NCBI GenBank assembly: GCA_963702025.1
Contig: OY969699.1
Location: 576,001 to 640,000 of the forward strand
DNA from: an uncultured bacterium
GTDB lineage: Bacteria > Babelota > Babeliae > Babelales > Vermiphilaceae
Length of the DNA stretch: 64,000 nucleotides
Direction of reading: 5' to 3'
A program made the translations under genes and the position numbers. The notes under the pieces were generated by a model. It was given only the letters and a program-made list of their open reading frames with translations. It had not been told where the DNA came from and did no database searches. The number at the start of each line of letters is the position of its first letter. The stretch's first letter is position 1. This document shows positions 1,860 to 47,935 of this stretch, piece by piece.

Positions 1860-3626
1860 TTACTCAGGTAATAGATTTCCAATAATCTTTTTTTTCAAAG
1901 CGGCAAAATCATGCATAATGGTAGTAATCTGCGCATGATCACCCATCTGTTTTGCAGCCTCTAATTTTATTTTTATAGTATTTACAATCACTTTCCAATG
2001 TTTCTTTTGTAATTGTATTACCAACTGCTCAAACTGTGCAGATGAAATTTCCTCTTGAGTGGTCAAGAGTGTTTTGCTAACATACGTTTTTTCATGCTCT
2101 TCAAGCGATTCAAAGAATTGAATGAACCCTAATTCGGGAGCTCGTTTTTTTTCTTCCTGTAGTCGTTTAAGTATATCGTTTATTGGATAGGGAAGATAGG
2201 TTATCAGGAATTCTTCATTTTCTTCAGTTATCAAATGTATGTTATTTATTATACTAAAAAATATTTTATTTTCTAGTGTAGTTATTGTCTTCCCGAGGCT
2301 TTTACCATCCCCCAGGACAGGTTCCGGAGCCAGTTTTAGTGGTTTTGATTTGGTCAAGAGGCGATTGAGCTCATTTTTTAGGGATTCAACGGGAATTTGC
2401 AGATGTTTGCTGCTTTCCTGCAGTAGAATATCGTGCTTAAGGGGTTCCTCAACTTTACTGATCATTTCAAGTATTTTATGGGTAAGCTGCATCTTATGGC
2501 CAAGCCCTTTCTGGGCAAACCCAGTCCCCAATGTTTCAATGAAAAAGCTAAATATGTCTTTTGATTCAATTATCAGGGGGTTAAGATCCAACCCTTTTGT
2601 TAAATACGAGGCGGGATCCTCTCCCGAGGGCAAGCAAACTACTTGTAGATCAAGGCTAGCTTGCCAGGCTAACTGACCAATGCGCAGTATGGCCTGTTGG
2701 CCAGCGTTATCCCCATCATAGAGTACATACAAGCGTGATGTATAGCGCGCAAGAATCTCTAGGTGATCGAGGGTGCAGGCAGTGCCCAGGGTGGCCACCG
2801 TGTTGGCAAACCCATACTGGGCCATGGCAATACAATCGGTATAGCCTTCAACTAAAAATACTGCCTCTTTTGTTTGAATTTCTTTTTTTGCTCTGTCTAG
2901 CCCAAAAAGAAGCTTTCCTTTTAAAAATGACTCGTTTTCGTGCGAATTGTAATACTTGGGCCGAGTGTCATGAGCGGCAAAAGTTCTACCCCCAAAGCCG
3001 CAGTATCTCCCCAAATGGTCGGCTATGGGAAAAATAATGCGTTCTTCAAAGGGAGAAAAGAGGATATTCTTGCCCCGTGAAAGAATATGGGTTTCTAAAA
3101 GGTCATCCACTAAAATATTTTGTTTGCCCAGATCGGTGGTCAATTTTTTGATATTACTCAACCCGCCCGGCAGATAACCGATCATAAACTGTTCAATGCT
3201 TTTTTTGGAAAGACCACGTTTAGTGAGATACGATAACGCGGCAGTCGAATTTAACACCTGTTTGTTGCACCATTGGGCAAATGTTTGGCAAATCAGGAAA
3301 TAATGTTGATCATTTTTATGTGATGCGCCAAAATCGCTGGCCAGAGTTGAAGGTAGCTCGATTTGATATCGATCAATGAGCTGTTTTGCTGCTTCCATTT
3401 GCGAGCAATTCTCTTTGCGTGCAATAAAGGCGATAACGTCCCCGCCAACATGGCAGCCAAAGCAATAAAAGATTTCTTTGTGCGGGCTTACAGTGAATGA
3501 TGCGGTTTTTTCTGCGTGAAAAGGACATTGCCCTTTCCAATAGAGGCCCGCTTTTTTTAGGGTTGCATATTCACTGACTACATCAAGAATGGCTATGCGT
3601 GTCTTTAAATAACTAAAAAGGTTCAT
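1860..3626 (-). CDS. dnaG: DNA primase
   Basis: CHC2 zinc finger CPFHAEKTASF..CFGC, PKYYNS, TOPRIM EGYTD and YDGDNAG. Likely start ATG 3626 overlaps the lgt stop (ATGA). Confidence 0.97.
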   Translation of the reverse strand: MNLFSYLKTRIAILDVVSEYATLKKAGLYWKGQCPFHAEKTASFTVSPHKEIFYCFGCHVGGDVIAFIARKENCSQMEAAKQLIDRYQIELPSTLASDFGASHKNDQHYFLICQTFAQWCNKQVLNSTAALSYLTKRGLSKKSIEQFMIGYLPGGLSNIKKLTTDLGKQNILVDDLLETHILSRGKNILFSPFEERIIFPIADHLGRYCGFGGRTFAAHDTRPKYYNSHENESFLKGKLLFGLDRAKKEIQTKEAVFLVEGYTDCIAMAQYGFANTVATLGTACTLDHLEILARYTSRLYVLYDGDNAGQQAILRIGQLAWQASLDLQVVCLPSGEDPASYLTKGLDLNPLIIESKDIFSFFIETLGTGFAQKGLGHKMQLTHKILEMISKVEEPLKHDILLQESSKHLQIPVESLKNELNRLLTKSKPLKLAPEPVLGDGKSLGKTITTLENKIFFSIINNIHLITEENEEFLITYLPYPINDILKRLQEEKKRAPELGFIQFFESLEEHEKTYVSKTLLTTQEEISSAQFEQLVIQLQKKHWKVIVNTIKIKLEAAKQMGDHAQITTIMHDFAALKKKIIGNLLPE

Positions 3627-4408
3627 GATGGTGCAAATTTTTTGGAGAGTTTCAGATATATAAAAGTAACGCCGGATAAAATCATAATAATAAGTGCCAA
3701 AAGTTGCGGCACGGAAATTGATGATAGTAACCAAAGATGTAAAAATTCACGATCCGCGCGCCAGAAATCAATGATAAATCGTTCGGCACTCGAGAGCACT
3801 AGGTATAAACAGGCAAGTTGCCCCGGCACTTTGCATTGATATTGTGCGTAAAAAAACATAAAAAGAAAGATTACAAAAAGAGCGAAAGCGCTATAGAGTT
3901 GCGTGGGATGAAGCGGTTGATGGGCCAGTTCCTCAATGGGGCATGATGGATTGATGACCCCAATCCATAACCCGGTTGGCAGACCAAAACAACAACCGGC
4001 AAAAAAACAACCGACGCGTGATACTGATTGCAACAACGGAATATAAATTGCAGCAACATCCAAAAACGGAACAATAGGAATTTTAAGCTTTTTTAAATAA
4101 AATGGTGCCACTAGTAAAAGAGCAATAACTGCTCCCATTAAAGAAAAGCCACCTTCCCAGATCTTAAAAATTGCACTAAAAGATTCAAGAGATTGCCAGT
4201 TACTTGCCAGAAAGAGTAATCTGCCGCCGATGATGCTTGCGATTATTGCCAGCGATAACAGGTTAAAATACTCGTCAACGCTCATCATCTTTTTGATGCG
4301 GCGATCTTTAAGCAGGAGTGTGCTAAAGAGTATTATCCCGATAACAATAAAAACGCCGAAGCTTTTTATGGAAAAAGGACCATATAAATGAATAATATCC
4401 GGTCGCAT
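3623..4408 (-). CDS. lgt: prolipoprotein diacylglyceryl transferase
   Basis: GGRL, IWEGGFS, RVGCFFAGCCFG, HPTQLY and RFIIDFWR motifs; multiple hydrophobic segments. Confidence 0.93.
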   Translation of the reverse strand: MRPDIIHLYGPFSIKSFGVFIVIGIILFSTLLLKDRRIKKMMSVDEYFNLLSLAIIASIIGGRLLFLASNWQSLESFSAIFKIWEGGFSLMGAVIALLLVAPFYLKKLKIPIVPFLDVAAIYIPLLQSVSRVGCFFAGCCFGLPTGLWIGVINPSCPIEELAHQPLHPTQLYSAFALFVIFLFMFFYAQYQCKVPGQLACLYLVLSSAERFIIDFWRADREFLHLWLLSSISVPQLLALIIMILSGVTFIYLKLSKKFAPS

Positions 4409-4532
4409 ATTAGTCTCTTATAAAACGGTTGGGTGCTGTATGTTTCACTATAGACCAATTTATAGATTTTAACGAATATTTATTTATTTTTTTGTTGCTT
4501 TAGCGGGAAATAATTACGCCAGAGTGTAGTTC

Positions 4533-5282
4533 TTAGTTGGTTTCTGTGTTGTTGGTAAGTTTTGGCAAATGAATATAAACATCCGACCAGGTTGGCATAC
4601 TTTTTCTATGGGATAGCAAGAAACGGATAAAACCCATACATTTATCAACTACGCCGCATTCTTTAAATAACGGGTGCAATGCTTCTTGTTTATATACCAG
4701 TTCTGCCACCGCATGTTGACCTTGATGGTCAAGATCGGAAGCATTATAATGGCAATCATAGACAAAGTGGAGCGAAGGAAATATATTCAACATGGATTTT
4801 ATCCATTCGGGCATGCGCAATAATGCTGCAACAGTTCTTAAGCTTAGCTTGCCGTCAAAGGTGAATTTATCATTGTGAACCGGTACTTGATTAATGTCAT
4901 TGAAAGGAATTTTTTCGCCATTGATGTGGATGGTTAAAAATTCCAGGATCTCTTTTCTTGTATTTTCGTCTTTTTCTAGTTCGTTAATAAGTTTTAGCCA
5001 GTCTTCGATATCATTTTGGAAGACAACTTGTGATAATTTAGGGCGTTCTTGTGTTGCTGGCTTTTGATGCAACAATTGCTTAATTTTGTTTTCCAGCTGA
5101 TTAGAATATGCGCCTTCTTGCGTGTGATTTTCTTGCGAGTTGATCAATGATGTTGGATGTGTTTTGCCATTTGAATTTTTGGTTTCAATTGTTTGATCGT
5201 TGGGGGTTGCTAGGGTGATGCAGGCGCAGAATAACAGACTAAGACTTAATATTCTATATATAAAACTATCAGTTACTTTCAT
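4533..5282 (-). CDS. hypothetical secreted protein
   Basis: 249-aa ORF with an N-terminal hydrophobic signal-like segment and a GGAG-like RBS; no recognised domain. Confidence 0.7.
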   Translation of the reverse strand: MKVTDSFIYRILSLSLLFCACITLATPNDQTIETKNSNGKTHPTSLINSQENHTQEGAYSNQLENKIKQLLHQKPATQERPKLSQVVFQNDIEDWLKLINELEKDENTRKEILEFLTIHINGEKIPFNDINQVPVHNDKFTFDGKLSLRTVAALLRMPEWIKSMLNIFPSLHFVYDCHYNASDLDHQGQHAVAELVYKQEALHPLFKECGVVDKCMGFIRFLLSHRKSMPTWSDVYIHLPKLTNNTETN

Positions 5283-5478
5283 AATGGGTCTCCAGTGTTA
5301 AATAGAGATTCATGTATGTGATTATTTCTGTTCATTAACCCTATTATAGCATAATACGGGGAAATAACCAAAAATAGGACCCGTAATGCACAAATATTAT
5401 TGATAAATGTGCCATTTGTAAATATTAAATTGTCATGACCCGTGCCATTCAAGAGTTTCGGGAAAGGAGGGGATTCTT

Positions 5479-7329
5479 CTATTTTCTATCTGAATCGCAG
5501 AGGGGGCAGGATTGATGGTGGTCCCTGGCCTTAAAAATAAGTAGAGAAAGGGCAGCTGGCGTAATCCCCGGAATAAGCGCAGCCTGGGCAATAGTGCCGG
5601 GTTTGTGTCGTTTGAGTTTCTCTTGCAACTCTTTGGAAAGCCCTGGCATTGCATCATAATTGAGGCAGGAGGGTAGAATCAGTTCTTTATAAGTTTGTGC
5701 TTTTTGAGCTTCTTTTGCTTCGCGAGCAAGATACGGCTCGTATCTAATTTCGGCATGGATTGTGAGAGCAGCGCGATCGGGGATATCTTTTTGAGTGACT
5801 TCTTTCACTTTGGCAACGTCACATTCCAGGTCGCCAAAAAGCTTAAGCAGTGTTGCATTGTTATTGCCCGCGCGCAATTCTTGCAACGTGGTATCTATTA
5901 ATTCTTTTTCAGACTTAAAGTCATCGTAGAGTGTTTGTTCAATGAGGCCTAAATTATACGCTCGATCAGTTAATCGTAAAAACGCGTTATCTTGCCGCAA
6001 GGAAAGTCTGCGTTCAGCGCGGGATGTAAACATGCGATATGGCTCGTCCACGCTGAGCGTTACTAGATCATCAACCATGACGCCGATATAGCCCTCGGTT
6101 CTTTCAATAATAAATGGTTCTTGGCCAGCTTGTTTAAGATGAGCATTAATCCCGGCAATGATACCTTGTCCTGCTGCTTCTTCATAACCGGTGGTGCCGT
6201 TTATTTGTCCGGCAAGAAAAAGCCCGGGAACAGTTTTAAGTTCCATGGTGTGTTTTAATTGATTGGGTAAAATAAAATCATATTCGATGGCGTATCCCGG
6301 ACGCGTAATGATTGCCTGTTCAAATCCTTTAATGGTTTGTACATATGCTTTTTGCACATCGTAGGGTAATGACGTTGAGATTCCATTCGGATAAATTTCT
6401 TCTGTTGATGCTCCTTCGGGCTCAACAAAAATATGGTGTGATGTTTTATCGGCAAATCGGCCGATTTTATCTTCAATGGAAGGGCAATAACGAGGACCAA
6501 TGCCTTGTATGTTGCCGCTATACATTGCTGAAAGATGTAGATTTTTTCTGATTATTTCATGTGTTTTTGCATTGGTGTGCGTGATGTAACAAGCATGGGA
6601 ACTATTTACTTTATGGGGATAAAACTCAAACAAATAGTTTAAGTTATCAGGTTGCTGATATTCAAGGGCAGAAAAATCGATTGATGATTTTAAAAGTCGT
6701 GGCGGTGTTCCGGTTTTAAGGCGCCCCATGCGAAGACCCAAACTATGTAACACTGCCGAAAGATTGGTAACCGCCTCTTCACCCTGACGGCCGGCCGAAT
6801 AATTTACCTGCCCGATGTGCACTTTACCATTCAAAAAAGTACCGGTGGTTAAAATAACGTTTGGGGCTAAAAATTCTGCACCGTCTCTAGTGATTACGCC
6901 ACGCACTTGGTTAGTTGCCGGATCACGCAGGATATCTTGCACCATGCCCATGCGCAGGGTGAGATTGGGCATAGTTTCTAAAACTTGTTTGCTGAGTTTG
7001 TTATAGGCATATTTATCGATTTGTAAACGCAAGCCATGAACTGCTGAACCCTTGCTGGTATTGAGCATGCGGGCTTGGATGTATGTTTTGGTGCATAATT
7101 TAGGCATTAAGCCGCCCAAAGCACTAATCTCATACACAATATGCCCTTTGCCCACACCGCCAATAGCGGGGTTGCAGGGCATGAGCCCAATAGTATCGAG
7201 ATTGAGGGTGATCATGAGAGTTTTTGAGCCCATCTTGGCAGCGGCATGAGCGGCTTCTATACCCGCGTGCCCGCCTCCAACAACAATAACATCAAAATCG
7301 TGCGAAAAACTGTTTGCCATAACAACCAT
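5479..7329 (-). CDS. mnmG: tRNA uridine-5-carboxymethylaminomethyl synthesis enzyme MnmG (GidA)
   Basis: GGGHAGIEAA, CNPAIGG, RLKTGTPPRL, GPRYCPSIEDK, AGQINGTTGYEEAA, EPYRMFTSRAE. Start may be 7320. Confidence 0.97.
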   Translation of the reverse strand: MVVMANSFSHDFDVIVVGGGHAGIEAAHAAAKMGSKTLMITLNLDTIGLMPCNPAIGGVGKGHIVYEISALGGLMPKLCTKTYIQARMLNTSKGSAVHGLRLQIDKYAYNKLSKQVLETMPNLTLRMGMVQDILRDPATNQVRGVITRDGAEFLAPNVILTTGTFLNGKVHIGQVNYSAGRQGEEAVTNLSAVLHSLGLRMGRLKTGTPPRLLKSSIDFSALEYQQPDNLNYLFEFYPHKVNSSHACYITHTNAKTHEIIRKNLHLSAMYSGNIQGIGPRYCPSIEDKIGRFADKTSHHIFVEPEGASTEEIYPNGISTSLPYDVQKAYVQTIKGFEQAIITRPGYAIEYDFILPNQLKHTMELKTVPGLFLAGQINGTTGYEEAAGQGIIAGINAHLKQAGQEPFIIERTEGYIGVMVDDLVTLSVDEPYRMFTSRAERRLSLRQDNAFLRLTDRAYNLGLIEQTLYDDFKSEKELIDTTLQELRAGNNNATLLKLFGDLECDVAKVKEVTQKDIPDRAALTIHAEIRYEPYLAREAKEAQKAQTYKELILPSCLNYDAMPGLSKELQEKLKRHKPGTIAQAALIPGITPAALSLLIFKARDHHQSCPLCDSDRK

Positions 7330-18318: not shown

Positions 18319-19260
18319 TTAAAGCAAGGGATTCTTGGCAAATCCAATTAGCCGACATTCGGGTTGTGGCAGAACGCCAAATTCTTTATAAACTAATTCT
18401 TGCATGGTTCGTGCAAGAGTGATGATATCGGTGCTGGTGGCATTGCCTTGATTAACGATCATATTGGCATGTTGATGTGAAACAATTGCATTGCCGATCC
18501 GTAAATGTCCTTTTACACCAATTTTATCCAGATAGTAGGCAACATAAATTATTTTTTTGTTATTGCTTACGAGCGTTACTTCATGGTCAAGAAAATTCCT
18601 AAAAAAACTTCCGCAGGTATTTTTTGCCGGATACCGTTTTTCGCGATGACGAATAATTTCTTTTCGTCGTCCGCGGGCAAATGCAGTTTCTAAATCGGTT
18701 GCCTTTTTTAAGATAAACGTTGCGTCAACTAAATAAAATTGTTCTTCTTGTAACTTAGATTTGTTGTAGCCAAATGCAAACCAATCCGGCGCAATGGTAG
18801 AATATTGATTGGTTTTTTTATCAAGCACCGTTGCATTAAACAAAAACTGCTCTAACAAAAATTCATAATAGTGGAGATTGATATACAAAGAACCGCCAAC
18901 CGTGCCAGGAATGCCGCTAAATTCTTCAAGTCCAATAATAGAATGATCCAAGCAAAAGAGAATGAGATCGTGCATAGATGCGCCGGCGCCAGCTTTTACT
19001 AATATATGTTCTTGCGAAGGCAAAATTGATATTTCATTTAACTGAGGTTGAATCACCAGTCCGTCAAAGCCCTCATCACTAATAAGAATGTTGGCGCCTT
19101 TTCCTAAAATAAAAATTGGTAATTCTTTTTGACTGGCATATTCAACGGCATACTGAAACTCTTGAGCGGTTTGAGGCTGCGCAAAATAACGGGCGCTACC
19201 ACCGGTGTTGAACCAATTTTTATCTTTAAGCGGAACATTTGTTTGAATGAGATGATTCAT
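18319..19260 (-). CDS. murB: UDP-N-acetylenolpyruvoylglucosamine reductase
   Basis: GKGANILISD, GIPGTVGG, CGSFFRN, HANMIVN. Confidence 0.95.
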   Translation of the reverse strand: MNHLIQTNVPLKDKNWFNTGGSARYFAQPQTAQEFQYAVEYASQKELPIFILGKGANILISDEGFDGLVIQPQLNEISILPSQEHILVKAGAGASMHDLILFCLDHSIIGLEEFSGIPGTVGGSLYINLHYYEFLLEQFLFNATVLDKKTNQYSTIAPDWFAFGYNKSKLQEEQFYLVDATFILKKATDLETAFARGRRKEIIRHREKRYPAKNTCGSFFRNFLDHEVTLVSNNKKIIYVAYYLDKIGVKGHLRIGNAIVSHQHANMIVNQGNATSTDIITLARTMQELVYKEFGVLPQPECRLIGFAKNPLL

Positions 19261-20161
19261 ATATTTTGGTTGGTTCAGGTCTTTTTTGAGCATGGCCACT
19301 CGTTATTAAATCCAAACATTGATTACTGCAAGTATTTTGATACTTTTCTAAGCATGCAGCGCAACAAATAAAATGTCTATTACAGGCTGCACGCAAACAA
19401 TTAGTGTAATCATCACACGGTGCACAGCAAATATAACAGCTGCCTAAAATGTCGTCAGTAACTTTTACTGTAATTCGTCCATCAAAAACATAATTTTTGC
19501 CTTTAAAAAATCCATTGGGAAATTGTTCAACATACCGGTGGATGCCACCCTTAATCTGATAAACTTTTTTTGTTACTCCTTTCAATGCAACGTAGGCCGA
19601 TGCGCGTTCACAACGAATGCCGCCGGTGCAAAACATGAGAACATCTTTTTCTTTCAGCTTATCGAGGTTGTTGTCTACATAGGTAGGAAAATCTCTAAAA
19701 TGGGTTATATCGGGCCTCAGTGCACCCGGAATGGTGCCAATAGCAGATTCATAAGGATTGCGGCAATCAATAATAACCAGATCTTTATTTTTTTGCGCAA
19801 GAAGTTCATGGGCTTGTGCCGGTTCTAAATGAATGCCTCCTTGATCAGCTGTTGCCGTTGCCGGATCGAGGCCAATATTTACAATTTCTTTTTTAACAAC
19901 AATACGAAGGCGCGGAAAGCGGCTATGTTCAGTGTTACTTTCTTTAAAATCTATTCCGTCAAACAACGGATGATTATTCATCGCTTTTTTGTAGAGCTGG
20001 ATATTTTCATTTTCTCCGCCCAGTGTTGCATTGATTCCTTCATGCGCAAGAATAACGCGCCCTTTAAGAGCGAGTTTGTAACAAAGATCTTTTTGCCATT
20101 GTAAAATTTTATTTGGATATTCTATGTAAACATATTTGTAGAATAAAATTATTGTTTGCAT
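19226..20161 (-). CDS. trhO: tRNA uridine(34) hydroxylase TrhO (UPF0176 rhodanese)
   Basis: FYKY, HEGINAT, FCTGGIRCERAS, GGIHRY, GKNYVFD and Cys-rich C-terminus. Confidence 0.9.
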   Translation of the reverse strand: MQTIILFYKYVYIEYPNKILQWQKDLCYKLALKGRVILAHEGINATLGGENENIQLYKKAMNNHPLFDGIDFKESNTEHSRFPRLRIVVKKEIVNIGLDPATATADQGGIHLEPAQAHELLAQKNKDLVIIDCRNPYESAIGTIPGALRPDITHFRDFPTYVDNNLDKLKEKDVLMFCTGGIRCERASAYVALKGVTKKVYQIKGGIHRYVEQFPNGFFKGKNYVFDGRITVKVTDDILGSCYICCAPCDDYTNCLRAACNRHFICCAACLEKYQNTCSNQCLDLITSGHAQKRPEPTKIYESSHSNKCSA

Positions 20162-37503: not shown

Positions 37504-37553
37504 AACTATTCTATTAAATACATTTTTTTGTTTATTTGAGAAAGGTACTCAAG

Positions 37554-37946
37554 ATGATGACATATTGTGTTGTATTGGCAGGAATCGGTTTCGGAATTTC
37601 ATTATATATGTATTTGCTCGAGCAAAAAGTTAAAAATGAGCCCACCTATAAACCGGTCTGTGATATTGATGATCGTATTTCATGTACTAAGGCAATGAAA
37701 AGTAAATATGCCAATATCTTCTATTTTTCTAATGCATTAACCGGTATGGGGTACTATCTAGTGGTAGGGATTTTAGCACTATTTAGTGCCAGCCATTTAC
37801 TGTTAATTGCAACCATAGCTGGATGCATTTGCTCAGCTGTTCTAGCTTATTTTCTTATTTTTAAAGTTAAATCGCTCTGCATTTTGTGTACCACGTTATA
37901 TATAGTAAATATTTTACTTCTGATTTTTGCCATAATGATGCGATAG
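37554..37946 (+). CDS. vitamin K epoxide reductase (VKOR) family protein
   Basis: Loop cysteines CDIDDRISC, active-site CILC, 4 TM segments. Confidence 0.88.
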   Translation: MMTYCVVLAGIGFGISLYMYLLEQKVKNEPTYKPVCDIDDRISCTKAMKSKYANIFYFSNALTGMGYYLVVGILALFSASHLLLIATIAGCICSAVLAYFLIFKVKSLCILCTTLYIVNILLLIFAIMMR

Positions 37947-40188: not shown

Positions 40189-40380
40189 ATGATGGATAAC
40201 GCAAAATATAACAAAGTAAAAGTATTATATGATCTGAGCGCACTCTGCTGGTTCATTGAAAAGCACGCACTTGCGGATGCAAAAAAGGCAAATGATAGTG
40301 AATGCATTAAAATGCTTGAGGAACTCAAAAAGGATCTTGAAAAGCAGATTGCTGCATTTGATAAAAATGCCTGTAAGTAG
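40189..40380 (+). CDS. small hypothetical helical protein
   Basis: GAAGGGGA RBS; 63 aa; operonic between the nitroreductase and the beta-barrel gene. Confidence 0.7.
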   Translation: MMDNAKYNKVKVLYDLSALCWFIEKHALADAKKANDSECIKMLEELKKDLEKQIAAFDKNACK

Positions 40381-41308
40381 TGGACATGAAAAGAAGTTCA
40401 TTTTTTTTGCATCTGTGCTCTTGCTCTTTCCTCATGCCGATCACGGCTACGGGCTTCCATTTGTAGCTCTTGGCTCATCAAGCTTCTTAGACGGCGGTCC
40501 ATTGCGGCAAATTCCCGGTTGGTATTTTCAATTTTTTAATCAAGTCTATACTACACATCGGTTTTTAAATGATGAAGGGGAGCCGCTGGGTGGTGTTCCT
40601 TCACCACGGTATACGGGTTGGTTAACTGCTTACCAGCTTATTTATCTTTCTAAAAAAGATTTTCTTGGTTTAGGAAATCTTGGTTTTGATATTGCGCTGC
40701 CAGTAGCATTTTATTCACGAGTTCAACCGAATCAGTTAGGCATAAAAAGCAGTGGCAGTGGATTTGGTGATTTGCTTGTTGGGGTGTTTGCGCAAGGACT
40801 GCCGATTTTTCGGGGTGATAAACCACTCTATGTGCAACGGCTTGAATTTTCTATCTCTATTCCATCCGGCAAGAATCAGCTACCAAGGTTTACGATCAAT
40901 CCAGGTAATGGTGTATTCTTTATGAATCCCTATTGGGCAGCAACGCTTTATCTTGATCGCTTTTCGGCATCATGGGAGATTCATTATCTGTGGGTAGCCT
41001 ATAACCATCGCATTAACTTAAAGGCCGGCGATGCGATTTATGGCAATTATGCCCTGGCATATCAAATGACTGAGCATCTATTTTTAGGCATTAACGGGTA
41101 TTTCTTGCAACAGATTAAAGATAACAAACTCAATAATATTATTATTCCTGATAGTCGCGAGCGAGTTTTTGCCACAGGGTTTGGCGGACTATATACTTTT
41201 AAGCGCCGTTTTGCAGAAGTTCTACTGGTTAACTTTTATTGGGAAATGGCTGTCAAAAACCGTCCACAGGGTTTCAGATTTCTCTTGCGCTACCTGAGAC
41301 ACTTTTAA
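40367..41308 (+). CDS. COG4313/SphA-like outer-membrane beta-barrel, paralog 1
   Basis: LGSSSFLDGGP, SGFGDL, PSGK, INPGNG, GINGYFLQQI, VKNRPQG; terminal Phe. Confidence 0.8.
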   Translation: MPVSSGHEKKFIFFASVLLLFPHADHGYGLPFVALGSSSFLDGGPLRQIPGWYFQFFNQVYTTHRFLNDEGEPLGGVPSPRYTGWLTAYQLIYLSKKDFLGLGNLGFDIALPVAFYSRVQPNQLGIKSSGSGFGDLLVGVFAQGLPIFRGDKPLYVQRLEFSISIPSGKNQLPRFTINPGNGVFFMNPYWAATLYLDRFSASWEIHYLWVAYNHRINLKAGDAIYGNYALAYQMTEHLFLGINGYFLQQIKDNKLNNIIIPDSRERVFATGFGGLYTFKRRFAEVLLVNFYWEMAVKNRPQGFRFLLRYLRHF

Positions 41309-41340
41309 TAATTTAAAATCGCTCAAAAATTACGCAAAGC

Positions 41341-41408
41341 GATTTTCATTTATCAATAATCTTTTTTATTATTCTCGATGAGTGGTATATTTTTTAGCGT
41401 ACTAAAAA
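41341..41408 (+). promoter_or_regulatory. duplicated upstream/promoter block (copy 2)
   Basis: Matches 39426..39495. Confidence 0.65.
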
Positions 41409-41425
41409 TAGGTCATTGATAAAAA

Positions 41426-42460
41426 ATGCTTGCGAATAAGAAATTCATGAAAATAATTTTAAAGTTTCTTCGAAAATTTTTAGCGGTTTGTTTTGGGCGC
41501 ACGGTTTTGCGAGTTGAGAAAGACAAAAGAAAGCGAACGGAGATCTCAATTTATTTTGCGACCCTGCTCATGCTTTCTCCTTGCGCAAATCACGGCTACA
41601 ATATTCCTTTTGTAGGGCTTGGTTCGTCAAGCTTCTTAGATGGTGGACCATTGCGGCAAATTCCCGGTTGGTATTTTGAGTTTTATAATTTTTTTTATAC
41701 CACGCATAGATTTTTAAATAATGAGGGAAAGCGGCTTGGTGGCATTCCCTCGCCACGCTACACGGCTTGGGGACCAGCCTTTGAACTTATCTACTATTCT
41801 CAAAAGGATTTTTTGGGGTTGGGCAACCTTGGTTTTGATATTACTCAGCCCGTAGTGTTTTATTCTCACATTCAACCAAATAAGCTTGGGATAAAAGACA
41901 GCGGTGGCGGATTGGGAGATTTGTTTGTTGGTGTTTTTGTGCAATCGCGCCCATTTTTTCGGAGCGATGGCGAACCATGGTATGTGAACCGGCTAGAATT
42001 CTCTGTTTCTTTACCGACGGGTAAATTTCGGGGTAGGGCAGACACTATCAATCCGGGCAACGGTGCATATTGGTTCACCCCGTATTGGGATGCAACGCTC
42101 TATCTCGGCAGATTTTCTGCTTCATGGGAACTTCATTATCTGTGGGTAGGCAAGAATCATCATACCCACATAAGGGCAGGCGATGCTTTTTATGGTAATT
42201 ATGCCTTTGCCTATGAGTTAACGGAAAAGCTATTTGTAGGTATCAATGGCTATTTTTTGAAACAGATTCACAATGATACATTGAATGGCGTCACTGTTCC
42301 GAGCAGCCGTGAACGCGTGTTTGCCACCGGAGTTGGCGGTCTTTATACATTTAATCCACATTTTACTGAAGTAATCTTGTGCAACTTTTTTTGGGAATTT
42401 GCAGTGAGAAACCGTCCACAGGGCTTTCAATTCTTGTTTCGGTATCTTAAGCACTTTTGA
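41426..42460 (+). CDS. COG4313/SphA-like outer-membrane beta-barrel, paralog 2
   Basis: Colinear and highly similar to 40367..41308; terminal Phe. Confidence 0.8.
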   Translation: MLANKKFMKIILKFLRKFLAVCFGRTVLRVEKDKRKRTEISIYFATLLMLSPCANHGYNIPFVGLGSSSFLDGGPLRQIPGWYFEFYNFFYTTHRFLNNEGKRLGGIPSPRYTAWGPAFELIYYSQKDFLGLGNLGFDITQPVVFYSHIQPNKLGIKDSGGGLGDLFVGVFVQSRPFFRSDGEPWYVNRLEFSVSLPTGKFRGRADTINPGNGAYWFTPYWDATLYLGRFSASWELHYLWVGKNHHTHIRAGDAFYGNYAFAYELTEKLFVGINGYFLKQIHNDTLNGVTVPSSRERVFATGVGGLYTFNPHFTEVILCNFFWEFAVRNRPQGFQFLFRYLKHF

Positions 42461-42658: not shown

Positions 42659-43432
42659 ATGCCCAAACGGCTTAAATTTTCTACTATTTTTGCAACGATC
42701 GCCCTCGGCATTTCTTTAATTCTGCCGGTAAATATCATTAATGCGTACCCCTTATCACCCGAATCAAAAAAATTCATTGCCATTATGGCTGCCCTTGGTG
42801 GCACTGCAGGCGGTTTGATCGGTTATCTTGCTTCAGATAAACCATACTATTATGATTACCAAAAACCAACAACTTTGTGGGGCAAAATAAAATCATTTTC
42901 CTGGAGTTCCGTGCTTATTCCAGCCGGATTTGGTGCCGCAGCCGCTGCTGGCATAAGTTATTTTTGTACGTATGAAAAAATTTTAGAGCGAGCAGTTACA
43001 GGTCTTGAAAATACCGAGCTTAAATTGGTAGTAGAAAGTTCCGATCTTGCTGAAGTAAAAAATTTGTCATTCAGAGAAAAATATTCAACGGCTGCTGCAT
43101 ACGATAGATTAAATCGCGTATATGACTCGCTGATATCGCTGAAAGATAGTTTGATTAAAGTAACTAAATCGGGTATTCCATTACTCGTTTCGGTGGCACA
43201 TGCATGTTTAGATCGTCTGGCCAATTACGAAGCTAAAGTAAGAGAATGGCTCATTGCGATGAAAAATGATCCGAAGTTGTTACAAGAAACAATGCAGAAA
43301 GCAACTATCGAGACACAACGGCAAATGGCATATGCCCAGCAACAACAAGCGTATGCACAACACCAATTAGCTACTGCAGCATTGGTCAATGCGTTTAAGC
43401 CAAATCAAGTTGTAGTTGTTCAAAACAAGTAA
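42659..43432 (+). CDS. hypothetical membrane protein with Gln-rich C-terminus
   Basis: GGAGG RBS, signal peptide, two Gly/Ala-rich TM segments, AYAQQQQAYAQ. Confidence 0.75.
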   Translation: MPKRLKFSTIFATIALGISLILPVNIINAYPLSPESKKFIAIMAALGGTAGGLIGYLASDKPYYYDYQKPTTLWGKIKSFSWSSVLIPAGFGAAAAAGISYFCTYEKILERAVTGLENTELKLVVESSDLAEVKNLSFREKYSTAAAYDRLNRVYDSLISLKDSLIKVTKSGIPLLVSVAHACLDRLANYEAKVREWLIAMKNDPKLLQETMQKATIETQRQMAYAQQQQAYAQHQLATAALVNAFKPNQVVVVQNK

Positions 43433-43459
43433 AACAATATTTCGTATTTGGAGGAATTT

Positions 43460-43954
43460 ATGAAATTATTACGATACTTATTTATTTTTCTATTGGTGCC
43501 GTTAACCACTGCTTCGATGCAGGTTGCTCTCTCTACGCATCAAGAGCTGCCGGCTCTCTTAGACAACTATTACCAAGAGCATAAAACAACATTCGAATCA
43601 AAAATTTCAGCCTTTAAGCAAATGCTTGAAACACTAGACTTACTCTTAGAGAAGGATGTTGAGCTTGCTCTTCTTGATGAGCAAGAAATTCATTACCTGC
43701 AAATCTGTTTAAAATTTATCACTGAACTTGCGCAACAGTATCCACAATGGAATGCTCGGCAAACAGCAGAATGCAGCGAAGAAGAATTATTTGCTCTCTA
43801 TGATGCAGGCTTTATAGGAGCTATGAATTATCACCAATTTAGAATATTGTTTTCTCTTTCATCATTGTCTGATGACGAAAGAATTGCATTTGAAAAAGAT
43901 TTAGCTGACTTTCTTTATAAGAAACTGGCGCATGAACAAATATCAATAAACTAA
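43460..43954 (+). CDS. secreted hypothetical protein (array type A)
   Basis: GGAGG RBS; signal shared with the 44707 gene. Confidence 0.72.
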   Translation: MKLLRYLFIFLLVPLTTASMQVALSTHQELPALLDNYYQEHKTTFESKISAFKQMLETLDLLLEKDVELALLDEQEIHYLQICLKFITELAQQYPQWNARQTAECSEEELFALYDAGFIGAMNYHQFRILFSLSSLSDDERIAFEKDLADFLYKKLAHEQISIN

Positions 43955-44000
43955 TCACTACTCTGAGGATTTATCTTCTACATACCAATAAAGGATCACC

Positions 44001-44681
44001 ATGAAAAAAACATTACTTTTATCACTGCTTATTTCTTTTTCAGCGTTAGCAAATGATAACTCCACGGTTCTCTATTTGAAAAATAATAAGCGATTTATCA
44101 CTAGCAATGAAGTGGCTCAGGTGCCGAAAGAATCTCTTTCAAAGTTGTTATTGTTTCCTGATGAGCTGAGCAAACAAGAAGCCTGTCTTTTTACTAAGCT
44201 CGTTGATCTTTATATGAATGATGAAGAGTGCGAAGAATCAATAATGGCTAAAGTTCTTGATACCTTAAATTCATTAAGTCTTCATACTTTAAATTCATTT
44301 TTAGCATTTAACAGTGCGTTTCTTATGCATTTTGCATTTAAAATGGATAGCGAGGACAAGCTTGATATTTCGGCATTTTGGGATTTATACCTCACGAGTG
44401 ATTCCGATATAGAAGAGAGTGAGTGTTGGCTACAAGAGATGGATATGGATATTTCAACAAGTCCAAATACTCCATTAATAGCTATTATTTCCTCATATAC
44501 GCCATTAATGGCTCGTTTTGATCCTGCATTGCCCGTAATACAAAAATATAAAGATTTTCATCGTAATGTAATGAGCTACGCCTTTGAATATTTAAAAACA
44601 AAGTATAACGTTCAAACGAAACCAGACGTGCCTAATTATCCTCCTGTTCGCACATATCATGATTTTGTTGTGCCAAAATAG
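44001..44681 (+). CDS. secreted hypothetical protein (array type B)
   Basis: AAGGA RBS; signal MKKTLLLSLL; C-terminal KPDVPNYPPVR. Confidence 0.72.
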   Translation: MKKTLLLSLLISFSALANDNSTVLYLKNNKRFITSNEVAQVPKESLSKLLLFPDELSKQEACLFTKLVDLYMNDEECEESIMAKVLDTLNSLSLHTLNSFLAFNSAFLMHFAFKMDSEDKLDISAFWDLYLTSDSDIEESECWLQEMDMDISTSPNTPLIAIISSYTPLMARFDPALPVIQKYKDFHRNVMSYAFEYLKTKYNVQTKPDVPNYPPVRTYHDFVVPK

Positions 44682-44706
44682 AATCAAATATATCTAATGG
44701 AGACTT

Positions 44707-45252
44707 ATGAAATCATTAAAATATTCAGTTATTTTTCTATTGGTGCCATTGATGGCCATTGCGGTTAATAGTGATATACCTTCGAATGACGAAGAATTAT
44801 CTGCATTGCTTGAGCGGCATTATGAGGGCCAGATATACCAGCAATTAATTAATGATCATTACCCGCTCATAAAAGAATTTTATATTAAGCGCGAATTGTA
44901 TAAATCATGGCGGTGCATTATATGGCGCGGTGAAGATATTACTTTTAAGGTGTTGGCCCATTTTGCTCACTCATACGTTGAACAAGATTCCAAAGAGTTT
45001 CATCGCATGTTGCAAAGTGCAGATGGTGACTACATTCTTAAGCAAGCGGAAGCTATTTTTAACCAAGCTAAAGATTTATGGCTCTGGGGTTATCCAAAAG
45101 TTACCTTAATTGAAGCAAAAATATTGGCTTGTTTTGTAGAATCATATAATGCATTGCGGTACAAAGATACCAATCTGAAAGAAAAAGATACTGCGCATCA
45201 TTTTGCATTAGCCTTAACGGACTATATGTGCTCTCAATTAAATAAAATCTAG
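44707..45252 (+). CDS. secreted hypothetical protein (array type A')
   Basis: GGAG RBS; IFLLVPL signal and ELxALL motif shared with 43460. Confidence 0.72.
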   Translation: MKSLKYSVIFLLVPLMAIAVNSDIPSNDEELSALLERHYEGQIYQQLINDHYPLIKEFYIKRELYKSWRCIIWRGEDITFKVLAHFAHSYVEQDSKEFHRMLQSADGDYILKQAEAIFNQAKDLWLWGYPKVTLIEAKILACFVESYNALRYKDTNLKEKDTAHHFALALTDYMCSQLNKI

Positions 45253-45361
45253 TTTTTAATCTTAATTTAACCTCAAGGGGTTTACTATGACTAAATTATT
45301 ATTACTTTCACTCTCACTGATTGCATTGCCAGCATTTGGCGATCCTTATAAAAAAATAGAT
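45163..45361 (+). repeat. about 200-bp direct repeat (copy 1)
   Basis: Repeated at 45711..45911; covers the 3' end of the 44707 gene, the intergenic region and the next signal peptide. Confidence 0.95.
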
Positions 45362-45712
45362 TTAACATATACTGCACAAACCGAGTTGACTGTTGAAGAG
45401 AATGAAGTTTTTGAAATTTGCGGATCACAAGGAAATTCCCCATTTCATTGGGAGATTTATGAGATTCCAGAAAATTTTAAGATTTTAAGCTCAAGAGAAG
45501 AAAATGATGCTCGTGTTTGGACGATTATTCCTCAAAATGTTGGAACATTTAAAGTAGTTATAAGTCGAAATGAAAATGTTCATGATGCTGAAGGTTTTCT
45601 TGATGAAAATTATATAGAGGATAGAAGCATCAAAGTTGTGGTAAAGCCAAAGACTCCCGATTATGAACCCCTGAGAATTAATTATTATCGTAGTTGGTCA
45701 CAATATCCATAA
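45287..45712 (+). CDS. secreted Ig-like protein, possibly chagasin (I42)-like
   Basis: Signal LPAFG-D; VEENEVFEI..PFHW..VWTIIPQNVGTFKV pattern; lacks the canonical NPTTGY. Confidence 0.65.
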   Translation: MTKLLLLSLSLIALPAFGDPYKKIDLTYTAQTELTVEENEVFEICGSQGNSPFHWEIYEIPENFKILSSREENDARVWTIIPQNVGTFKVVISRNENVHDAEGFLDENYIEDRSIKVVVKPKTPDYEPLRINYYRSWSQYP

Positions 45713-45911
45713 AGAGACCAATCTGAAAGAAAAAGGTACTGCGCATCATTTTGCATTAGCCTTAACGGACTATATGTGCTCTCAATTAAATAAAATCTAG
45801 TTTTTAATCATAATTTAACCTCAAAAGGGATTTACTATGAATAAATTATTATTGCTTTCACTTTCATTAATTGCATTGCCAGCTTTTGGTGATCCTTATA
45901 AAAAAATAGAT
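45711..45911 (+). repeat. about 200-bp direct repeat (copy 2)
   Basis: Matches 45163..45361. Confidence 0.95.
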
Positions 45912-46250
45912 GTAACGCATCTTGAAAAAGCGTGCATATGTGTAGAAATAGATGAGCCATTTGAAATTTGCGCTTCAAAAGGAACCTGGCCATTCCATTG
46001 GTGGATAAATAAATTTTCTGAGGGTCTTGAGATTAATGGCTTAAGGGTAGAAAATGATGCTAAGGTATGGACCATAGTTCCTCAAGAATTAGGGACTTTT
46101 AAAATAGTTTTAGGTAATAAAACTCGTGATGCTGGAATCTGTGACGTGTATTATGAAACTATTATTAAAGAAATAAAGATCACTGTAAAACCAAGAGCAC
46201 CGCGCTATCACCCAGAATTCCCCGATAATAACCATATCAGACCTATGTAA
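45837..46250 (+). CDS. secreted Ig-like protein, paralog of 45287..45712
   Basis: Near-identical leader; roughly half of mature residues identical. Confidence 0.7.
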   Translation: MNKLLLLSLSLIALPAFGDPYKKIDVTHLEKACICVEIDEPFEICASKGTWPFHWWINKFSEGLEINGLRVENDAKVWTIVPQELGTFKIVLGNKTRDAGICDVYYETIIKEIKITVKPRAPRYHPEFPDNNHIRPM

Positions 46251-46462: not shown

Positions 46463-47935
46463 TTAAGCATTCTCTATTTTACTTCTGCACAAGGGGCATG
46501 GCTGCTTTACTTCCTTTATACGATCAAGGCAATCGGAGCAAAAGTTGTGTTTGCAATGTGTCTGGATATTCGCAAAATTGTCATTGCAAATGGGGCATTC
46601 TTCATAGCCCAATTTCTTATAATCAATAGAAAAGGTTTTAACCAGGTTTTGCTTGATGGTAGGGTTTGAAAAATTTTTAAAAATATTTACAAATGTTGGT
46701 GATGAAAAAACTTTTTCGGAGGGTTCATCTTCTAACCGTTTAATAAGAAGAAGCTCTAAGGCGCTAATTGAATGTTCAGTTTTTTTAATATTAATTATAT
46801 AAGCACCATTTTCAGTTCCTGCTGCAATAGTATTGCCATCACTGCTTATGGCAACGGATTGAACAGATTTATTTGCCGGTGAAAATAATTTAAAACATGA
46901 GTTTTTTGTACGATCGAATAAAACTATACCTATATTGGTTCCTAAAATAAGATTATTGTTATTCCATGGGCTTATTCTTGCTGCATTTATAGAGAATGGC
47001 GCTTCATTTCGAAATCTTACAGAAATTGTATCATCGCTTGTTTTTATAAGATAGGTCATAGTGCCATCGCTAGCCAAGAATCTATGATTACCATCGGGAG
47101 AAATATCTATATCGGCAATATTTTGAAGATCAGGATTAATTTCAATGGCCTTTGTTTTATAAGTGTTATCTTGAACCTTAAGGTACATAATGACTATTTT
47201 TGAATCGGATGCAAAAATAAAATTTTCTCCCGCTGCATCGGCTGCAAATCTTTTGATCTGAGTAACAGCCGGGGATAAATTAAGAGGGAATTCAAACTTC
47301 TTAGTGAGATCAACTAAGACGCATGAAATTTTATCACCATTTGTCTCCTCAGTGAATCGCCACTTGCCATTGGGTGAGATGGTTGAGAGTAATGCTGCTG
47401 TATCGCGAGGTAACAGGGTTAAATCTTTGGTCTTTAACGCTAATTGATAGAAACCTTTATTGTGGGCACATACAAGCATGTCATTGCCGCTAAAAGCTAT
47501 TCCATTAAGTGGAAGGGGATAGGTATTTTCATATACATCATCACCCCATCCTTGTTTCTTTTGTAGTACTTTTAATTTATTTCCATAAGCGATTGCCACT
47601 GCCGTGCCATCGTGATTCAAGGCAATGTGGTGTGCCGCTTCGGGCAATGTAACAACCGTAGAGTTATCTTTGGACACAATTCTTTGTGTTAAAGGTAATG
47701 GCTTTGCTGCTTGCACCAGATCATCATGATCAAGTCTATGACCGAGTTTGAATAAAAGAAGCTTATTTTCTGCAACCAGGGTTGATCGAGTTTTTTCTTG
47801 CGTTTCTTTATCAGCTTTAGTCAGTTCGGTAACTTTTGTTTCCCATGGATCTTTTTGTTCTAGATTCTTATCCATGGCAGTGAGAGAGCAAATAGAGAAT
47901 GTAGCAATAATTAGTGCATATTTTTTTGGTATCAT
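46463..47935 (-). CDS. secreted WD40-like beta-propeller protein with C-terminal C3HC4 RING finger
   Basis: Blades IALNHDG, IAFSGND, ISPNGKW, ISPDGNH, ISPWNNN, AISSDGN; RING CPIC-x10-CKH-x2-CSDC-x10-CPLC; signal ends SLTA-MDK. Confidence 0.88.
   Translation of the reverse strand: MIPKKYALIIATFSICSLTAMDKNLEQKDPWETKVTELTKADKETQEKTRSTLVAENKLLLFKLGHRLDHDDLVQAAKPLPLTQRIVSKDNSTVVTLPEAAHHIALNHDGTAVAIAYGNKLKVLQKKQGWGDDVYENTYPLPLNGIAFSGNDMLVCAHNKGFYQLALKTKDLTLLPRDTAALLSTISPNGKWRFTEETNGDKISCVLVDLTKKFEFPLNLSPAVTQIKRFAADAAGENFIFASDSKIVIMYLKVQDNTYKTKAIEINPDLQNIADIDISPDGNHRFLASDGTMTYLIKTSDDTISVRFRNEAPFSINAARISPWNNNNLILGTNIGIVLFDRTKNSCFKLFSPANKSVQSVAISSDGNTIAAGTENGAYIINIKKTEHSISALELLLIKRLEDEPSEKVFSSPTFVNIFKNFSNPTIKQNLVKTFSIDYKKLGYEECPICNDNFANIQTHCKHNFCSDCLDRIKEVKQPCPLCRSKIENA

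Follow-up and report, generated by a model that had tools for sequence, protein, structure and literature searches.

What does a bacterial gene do that joins a signal-peptide-like start, a WD40-type propeller and a eukaryote-type RING finger in one chain? Such a gene lies on the minus strand at 46463..47935 of the window, by which we mean the whole 64,000-nucleotide stretch of contig OY969699.1 that was analysed, in the genome of a member of the Babelota (Dependentiae/TM6). A preliminary description of this DNA proposed that the product is a secreted, single-chain E3 ubiquitin ligase effector. Sequence comparison and a predicted structure support that reading through a canonical RING, conserved E2-facing residues, a propeller fold, and a parasite-like genome in which no E1, E2 or ubiquitin of its own was matched. 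We consider it probable (roughly 0.7) that the protein is exported by Sec and serves a Babelota parasite as a single-chain RING E3 effector that uses host E1 and E2; ligase activity, recruitment of substrates by the propeller and delivery into the host cytosol are what we infer.

Domain anatomy and family of the propeller-RING protein

The open reading frame is free of stops and encodes 490 amino acids (P0001): a signal-peptide-like start, a helical segment, the propeller, a helical linker and the C3HC4 RING, all given below by their coordinates on the minus strand. The RING (C447-C483 and the linchpin-position R484, 46484..46597) carries the eight zinc ligands that had been announced for it, C447, C450, C461, H463, C466, C469, C480 and C483, encoded from 46597 to 46487, and their spacing is canonical (C-x2-C-x10-C-x-H-x2-C-x2-C-x10-C-x2-C, then R484). 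Its scores exceed the curated Pfam cut-offs for zf-C3HC4_3 (33.5 bits, cut-off 27), zf-RING_2 (30.6, 27.3), zf-C3HC4_2 (30.0, 27) and zf-C3HC4 (28.8, 21), so that ligand order, spacing and score all place it among the C3HC4 RINGs (PF00097/PF13920). The best solved relatives in a sequence search are RNF4, RING2, RNF141, TRIM21 and RNF8, of which RNF4, RING2, TRIM21 and RNF8 are E3 ligases, and BMI-1 and COP1 are also among the PDB matches. As far as residues go, the finger resembles that of a RING E3, with I449, I473 and P481 facing the E2 and R484 as linchpin; these positions (loop 1 Ile, helix Trp/Ile/Leu, loop 2 Pro and the linchpin Arg) are ones that we take over from known RING E3s. The residue directly after the second Cys, N451, is polar; a hydrophobic residue is common here in active RINGs, though some do without it. 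Within the source genome an ankyrin-RING paralogue has the most similar RING (46% over 50 residues), a closeness that suggests module shuffling. In a quick RING tree of 111 rows and 49 columns, which left out four Babelota rows as duplicates or odd pattern matches, 69 of the 108 inner branches stayed open, and because most of the tree is open in this way neither a protist nor a giant-virus donor can be named.

The six or more WD40-like blades of the preliminary description hold as a predicted fold and fail as a sequence signature. All propeller matches in Pfam lie below the cut-offs, the best being to the THOC3 propeller (E 1.6e-7, residues 269-388), and PF00400 reaches 21.3 bits against a cut-off of 27; the repeats are degenerate, PF00400 being matched in 9 of 20 family members at E 0.001. 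An AlphaFold model built from a 20-row alignment (pLDDT 88, pTM 0.86), which replaced a poor one from four sequences (pLDDT 62), predicts the RING helix at 467-475 and a seven-bladed WD40-type propeller at residues of about 86-382 (46790..47680), with four-stranded blades and a closing strand, as the putative substrate-binding module. By our own reading of the strand list, blades 1-6 occupy 101-138, 145-174, 183-218, 229-266, 275-311 and 316-351, and the seventh lies at 358-382 and is apparently closed by the strand 92-96. Residues 1-24 are disordered in the model with low pLDDT, and helices are predicted on both sides of the propeller, as an N-terminal segment (residues 30-76, 47708..47848) and as the linker to the RING (residues 384-434, 46634..46786); neither gave a match in Pfam and Atlas searches. 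The pTM of 0.86 is consistent with a defined arrangement of these domains. Compared with WD40 propellers the model gives VIA Z scores of 27-29 at an rmsd of 2.6-4.4 over about 275-304 residues, no whole-chain match was found among solved or viral structures (TMq at most 0.49), and the matches in a BFVD fold search cover the propeller alone. The nearest Atlas clusters are algal or plant proteins with WD40 and RING or U-box (0.76-0.81), which serve as leads only.

The protein belongs to a family of some 20 divergent members. A word-indexed protein search returned a sole homologue besides the query (P0002, 55%), two further homologues came from the genomes of relatives (G006 and G007), and a four-sequence profile run over 1.84 billion representatives added 16 proteins whose match reaches past the propeller into the linker or the RING, among the best 150 rows considered; apart from the query family, the remaining rows belonged to long WD40 proteins of a generic kind and were left out. 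Identity to the query ranges from 16 to 56% in the 20-row alignment (A2), and the RING is present in 19 of 20 rows. The RING-less row, P0038, is 58% identical to the intact copy in genome G073 and diverges at the start of the RING, without zinc ligands. Among the 19 RING-bearing rows all keep the eight ligands, Ile or Val at 449, P481 and R484; position 473 is W, I or L in 16 and H, R or S in three, and the residue at 451 varies and is frequently polar (N, L, F, K, Y, R, S). By mean modal conservation the RING (0.57) exceeds the blades (0.31-0.54).

The full-length fusion occurs in at least 4 of 261 Babelota genomes (the source genome G000, G006, G007 and G073), a count for which five candidates were scored per genome and which may miss some copies. 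The first three belong to one genus and are in the profile by construction, and G073 comes from another family and is independent. The copies are not syntenic, those of G007 and G006 lying in unrelated neighbourhoods. The N-termini of the 16 metagenomic members resemble those of Babelota proteins. A metagenome scan gave 79 loci, one a fragment of the family (L099) and the others RING-only or propeller-only, and 14 genome-contig loci gave two family members and 12 propeller-only proteins; in viral contigs none of 145 pattern matches was confirmed. Two low-GC metagenome contigs (L115, L100), possibly giant-virus DNA, carry tandem arrays of large proteins with similar C-terminal C3HC4 RINGs, five such RING-ending proteins forming the array of L115.

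The linker bears a weak similarity to the C-terminal helices of some RING-less Babelota proteins: a linker profile matched 2 of 52 of them at E 0.0014 and 0.015, the best reversed control being 0.25. This hints, weakly, that the RING may have been appended onto a native Babelota chassis of WD40 plus C-terminal helix. Skp1_POZ was present in one of five N-termini tested, and one Babelota WD40 protein (L184:481-2688, genome G039) has a signal-like start and Skp1_POZ above the cut-off; it is possibly a cullin-ligase adaptor on a similar propeller.

Source genome and predicted export route

The gene sits in an ordinary bacterial setting. Its GC (0.363) and GC3 (0.287) deviate from the genome mean by no more than about 1.3 SD, and around it lie housekeeping genes of bacteria together with small orphans that have signal-like starts; the same single contig of 1.6 Mb (95% complete) carries bacterial glmU, an sbcD-like gene, mreB and tRNA-Ser. 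Promoter and terminator scans remained at chance level (11 versus 8.6 expected), and short pieces from four DNA sequencing runs of one study did not bridge the propeller-RING junction; a search of sequencing runs listed none of RNA that holds the gene. Nearby in the window, six small plus-strand orphan genes run from 42659 to 46250, most with signal-like starts and none with a significant Pfam match, and those at 45287-45712 and 45837-46250 resemble a tandem duplicate pair. Two similar genes stand in tandem at 40256-42460, the second of which matches Phenol_MetA_deg (PF13557), presumably an outer-membrane barrel-type family. A Cys/His finger at 19226-20161 was excluded as a RING and belongs to a rhodanese-family protein.

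The source genome resembles a protist parasite's, with three ATP/ADP translocase genes and two secretins; one TLC match (G000:C1:779661-780962) is reported as two pieces inside a single 516-aa frame. ThiF (E1-like), FHIPEP (type III secretion) and VirB4 gave no match in this genome, with controls positive in 12, 4 and 1 of 14 genomes, respectively, and E2 and ubiquitin gave none in searches run without a positive control. No E1, E2 or ubiquitin-like partner was found among the window ORFs scanned either, and the genomic partners of a Prok-RING operon were thus not found. The available text of PMC6561590 and PMC4378268 describes Babelota as a phylum of protist parasites, with Sec-type secretion and mimics of the ubiquitin system.

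The predicted Sec signal peptide (residues 1-20, 47876..47935) has a basic n-region with KK, a hydrophobic core (8-residue KD 2.55) and small residues before Met21, with Ala20 at -1, and no transmembrane segment follows downstream (maximal 19-residue KD 0.88). This call comes from a hydropathy heuristic rather than SignalP, and the heuristic picks out 733 of 1451 genes, which is probably too many. Near-full-length family members pass it in 10 of 17 cases; of the seven without a signal as called, six begin with Met-D/E/Q, and these may be late start calls from an internal Met.

The preliminary description had singled out a signal peptide with Met(+1), and the start is signal-like by this heuristic; the Met turned out to be a genome-wide trait and not peculiar to this protein. 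Met21 (47873..47875), the predicted first mature residue, is followed by Asp and fits a pattern of small residue, Met and E/Q/D/N. Across the 733 signal-like proteins 5.3% of the residues at positions 16-27 are Met, versus 1.7% internally, A/G/S precedes such a Met in 303 of 462 cases (background 21%), D/E/N/Q follows it in 262 of 462 (background 22%), and the full motif at positions 16-27 is present in 208 of the 733. In 81 other Babelota loci, with 134 signal-like proteins between them, a small residue precedes the Met in 47 of 86 cases and D/E/N/Q follows in 38 of 86; a small set outside Babelota had the full motif in 0 of 14. The genome-wide excess of small residues ahead of a Met at positions 16-27 supports the signal-peptide prediction. 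Met followed by D/E/N/Q is what we take to be the eukaryotic NatB signature, and the predicted mature N-termini would accordingly resemble eukaryotic NatB substrates; the pattern is a candidate for mimicry, for a sorting signal or for a cleavage preference.

How the protein might then leave the cell can be sketched from related organisms. Type II secretion components are reported in the accessible parts of PMC4378268 and PMC4776705, and those of PMC6561590 give 44% as the share of C. destructans proteins with signal peptides and also report outer-membrane vesicles. A VKOR-family gene at window 37536-37946 suggests a periplasmic disulfide pathway. Since the Sec route would expose seven zinc-binding cysteines to the periplasm of a bacterium with this VKOR-family gene, the protein faces an oxidation hurdle.

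Weighing the readings and the known systems

The mechanism that we favour would begin with Sec export and cleavage before Met21, leaving a Met-Asp N-terminus, and with passage of the outer membrane through a type II-like secretin system or in outer-membrane vesicles. The RING would load zinc and bind host E2~Ub through I449, I473 and P481, R484 stabilising the closed conjugate, while the fast-diverging propeller, kept close to the RING by the flanking helices, would choose the substrate. A host protein, or another effector, would thereby be ubiquitinated and then degraded or re-routed. What speaks against this E3 reading is the polar and variable position 451, the H, R or S at 473 in 3 of 19 members, the RING-less P0038, the oxidation hurdle and a signal-peptide call that probably overreaches and that 7 of 17 members do not pass.

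Some of these same points would suit a protein that transfers little ubiquitin. Inactive RING partners exist, such as BARD1 and BMI1, and a secreted decoy or adaptor whose RING binds E2s, or pairs with host RING ligases, could inhibit or redirect host ubiquitination; the polar 451, the few members with a non-hydrophobic 473 and the match to BMI-1 fit such a role. Inactive partners, however, often lose the linchpin Arg and the loop 1 Ile/Val, and all 19 RING-bearing members retain both R484 and Ile/Val449, which makes this reading unlikely in our view. The ligase could instead be a genuine one that acts on another Babelota effector, in the manner of Legionella LubX on SidH (PMC13720258, in the part available). 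Candidate targets for a meta-effector of this kind would be many because about half of the gene set (the 733 heuristic calls) looks exported, but the unrelated neighbourhoods of the G007 and G006 copies reveal no conserved neighbour gene, and we hold the idea to be rather improbable.

Two further readings take the finger out of the host ubiquitin system altogether. It could serve a ligase for SUMO or another ubiquitin-like protein, or be a lipid- or protein-binding zinc finger of the periplasm or bacterial surface with no E2 role; predicted SUMO-protease homologues in Babela (PMC4378268, as far as its available text goes) and a delivery past the periplasm that is itself a prediction lend this some room. 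Its matches are nevertheless to ubiquitin-ligase C3HC4 RINGs and not to SP-RING, and a periplasmic function leaves the conserved linchpin Arg unexplained, so we rate it as very unlikely. The finger could also belong to a bacterial ubiquitin-like conjugation system of the Prok-RING type, Prok-RING_4 being matched weakly and under its cut-off in 5 of 20 members, or the gene could be eukaryotic or viral contamination of the assembly, many RING-only relatives lying on contigs that by eye look giant-virus-like or eukaryotic. The missing ThiF/E1 match, with its controls working, counts against the former, and the 1.6 Mb contig with bacterial genes, the ordinary GC and GC3 and the full-length fusion in three other Babelota genomes count against the latter; both are largely refuted, and we give them hardly any weight.

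Among eukaryotes, COP1, RFWD3, PRP19 and WDSUB1 likewise hold a RING or U-box and a WD40 propeller in one chain. COP1, RFWD3 and PRP19 run from an N-terminal RING or U-box through a coiled coil to WD40, whereas in our protein the order is reversed (propeller 86-382, RING 447-483), with short helical stretches and a predicted export signal. On account of the reversed order and this predicted signal it is not an orthologue of these three; by analogy it may work like single-chain E3s of the COP1/RFWD3 type. The bacterial U-box effectors LubX/GobX, AvrPtoB and NleG are delivered by type III or IV systems. They are bacterial effectors that activate host E2s allosterically, as is predicted for our candidate, but they are zinc-free U-box folds and have no propeller in the account accessible in PMC13720258. 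That account lists bacterial RING/U-box effectors as U-box folds or one atypical zinc RING, and the accessible text of PMC11354881 has prokaryotic RINGs depart from the canonical C3HC4 arrangement.

SneRING (SNE_A12920) of Simkania negevensis resembles our candidate in being a zinc-binding RING of an intracellular, amoeba-infecting bacterium, and despite atypical ligands it is an active ligase with host E2s; what is available of PMC12591485 gives it an N-terminal RING, an alpha/beta domain and 25 kDa, in contrast to the canonical C-terminal RING, propeller and signal-like start found here. The RING/U-box-LRR protein NEX1b of Neochlamydia, an amoeba symbiont, likewise couples an E3 module to a repeat-type substrate-binding domain; it differs, in the part of PMC4209131 available, by its LRR, its N-terminal RING/U-box and an indicated type III secretion, FHIPEP being unmatched in our genome. 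Within the phylum itself, Babela massiliensis has one RING protein proposed as E3, with predicted Sec and type II export; its WD40 proteins are separate and a fusion goes unmentioned in the available text of PMC4378268, whose supplements may give the architecture. Bacterial E3 effectors are therefore already known as a kind, and the order of propeller and then canonical RING was not found in the literature searched. That search, over main texts with few subscription papers among them, gave no description of a Babelota WD40-RING fusion, of bacterial RBRs or of the Met(+1) pattern; domain architectures relevant to this may be given in the supplements to PMC4378268 and PMC4776705.

Ligase-like genes across Babelota

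The starting view that RINGs are rare in bacteria does not extend to this phylum: PF13920 is matched in 78 of the 261 Babelota genomes surveyed, all of one order, and in none of 14 control genomes. Of 30 RING loci fetched, 27 had an ORF with the RING pattern, 17 of these 27 with signal-like starts, and the partner domains vary. The source genome itself has four others (G000:C1:55805-56638, 398486-399250, 467848-468894 and 868969-869358), RING or RING-like and each with a signal-like start. One is an ankyrin-RING and one a RING for which other Babelota have a homologue-like gene; the remaining two are divergent RING-H2-like fingers, one of them giving no Pfam match at 1e-5.

Outside the window, the same genome encodes two tandem ankyrin-RING1-IBR-RING2 proteins with signal-like starts (G000:C1:73511-75217 and 75237-76745, that is 3512-5218 and 5238-6746 of locus L002). 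The first matches ARIH1 across the whole triad (E 2.9e-23) and aligns its C384/H386 to ARIH1 C357/H359, which we take to be the catalytic residues; in the second, C293/H295 occupy the same motif. Of the 261 Babelota genomes, 42 give a match to IBR_1 (PF22191), against 0 of 14 controls. From 30 such loci fetched, 27 yielded 32 ORFs matching a pattern that requires the catalytic-position Cys; the His two residues on is present in 26 of the 32, signal-like starts in 25, and four are clipped by the ends of their loci. An automatic database name, 'IBR domain-containing protein', already exists. According to the available part of a 2026 review (PMC13720258), HECT, RBR, RCR and RZ ligases are families for which no counterpart in bacteria has so far been identified, and the RBR pair is likely more novel than the propeller-RING protein.

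It is tempting to see both as parts of one system, in which Babelota would export through Sec a modular arsenal of genuine eukaryote-type E3s, the propeller-RING protein and Ariadne-like RBRs with intact catalytic Cys/His, many of them starting with Met-Glu/Asp/Gln/Asn after cleavage and persisting in the host cytosol by mimicking NatB substrates; we offer this tentatively, at somewhat less than even odds. If it is true, the RBRs of Babelota would be the first from any bacterium. With a substrate propeller of its own, a canonical C3HC4 RING would make a compact and testable E3, whose roughly 20 natural variants could map the choice of substrate, and for bacteria in which type III and IV systems were not found, how effectors of the Sec pathway reach the cytosol becomes a testable question. 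Together these genes indicate a phylum-wide and largely undescribed ligase arsenal, RBR-type enzymes included.
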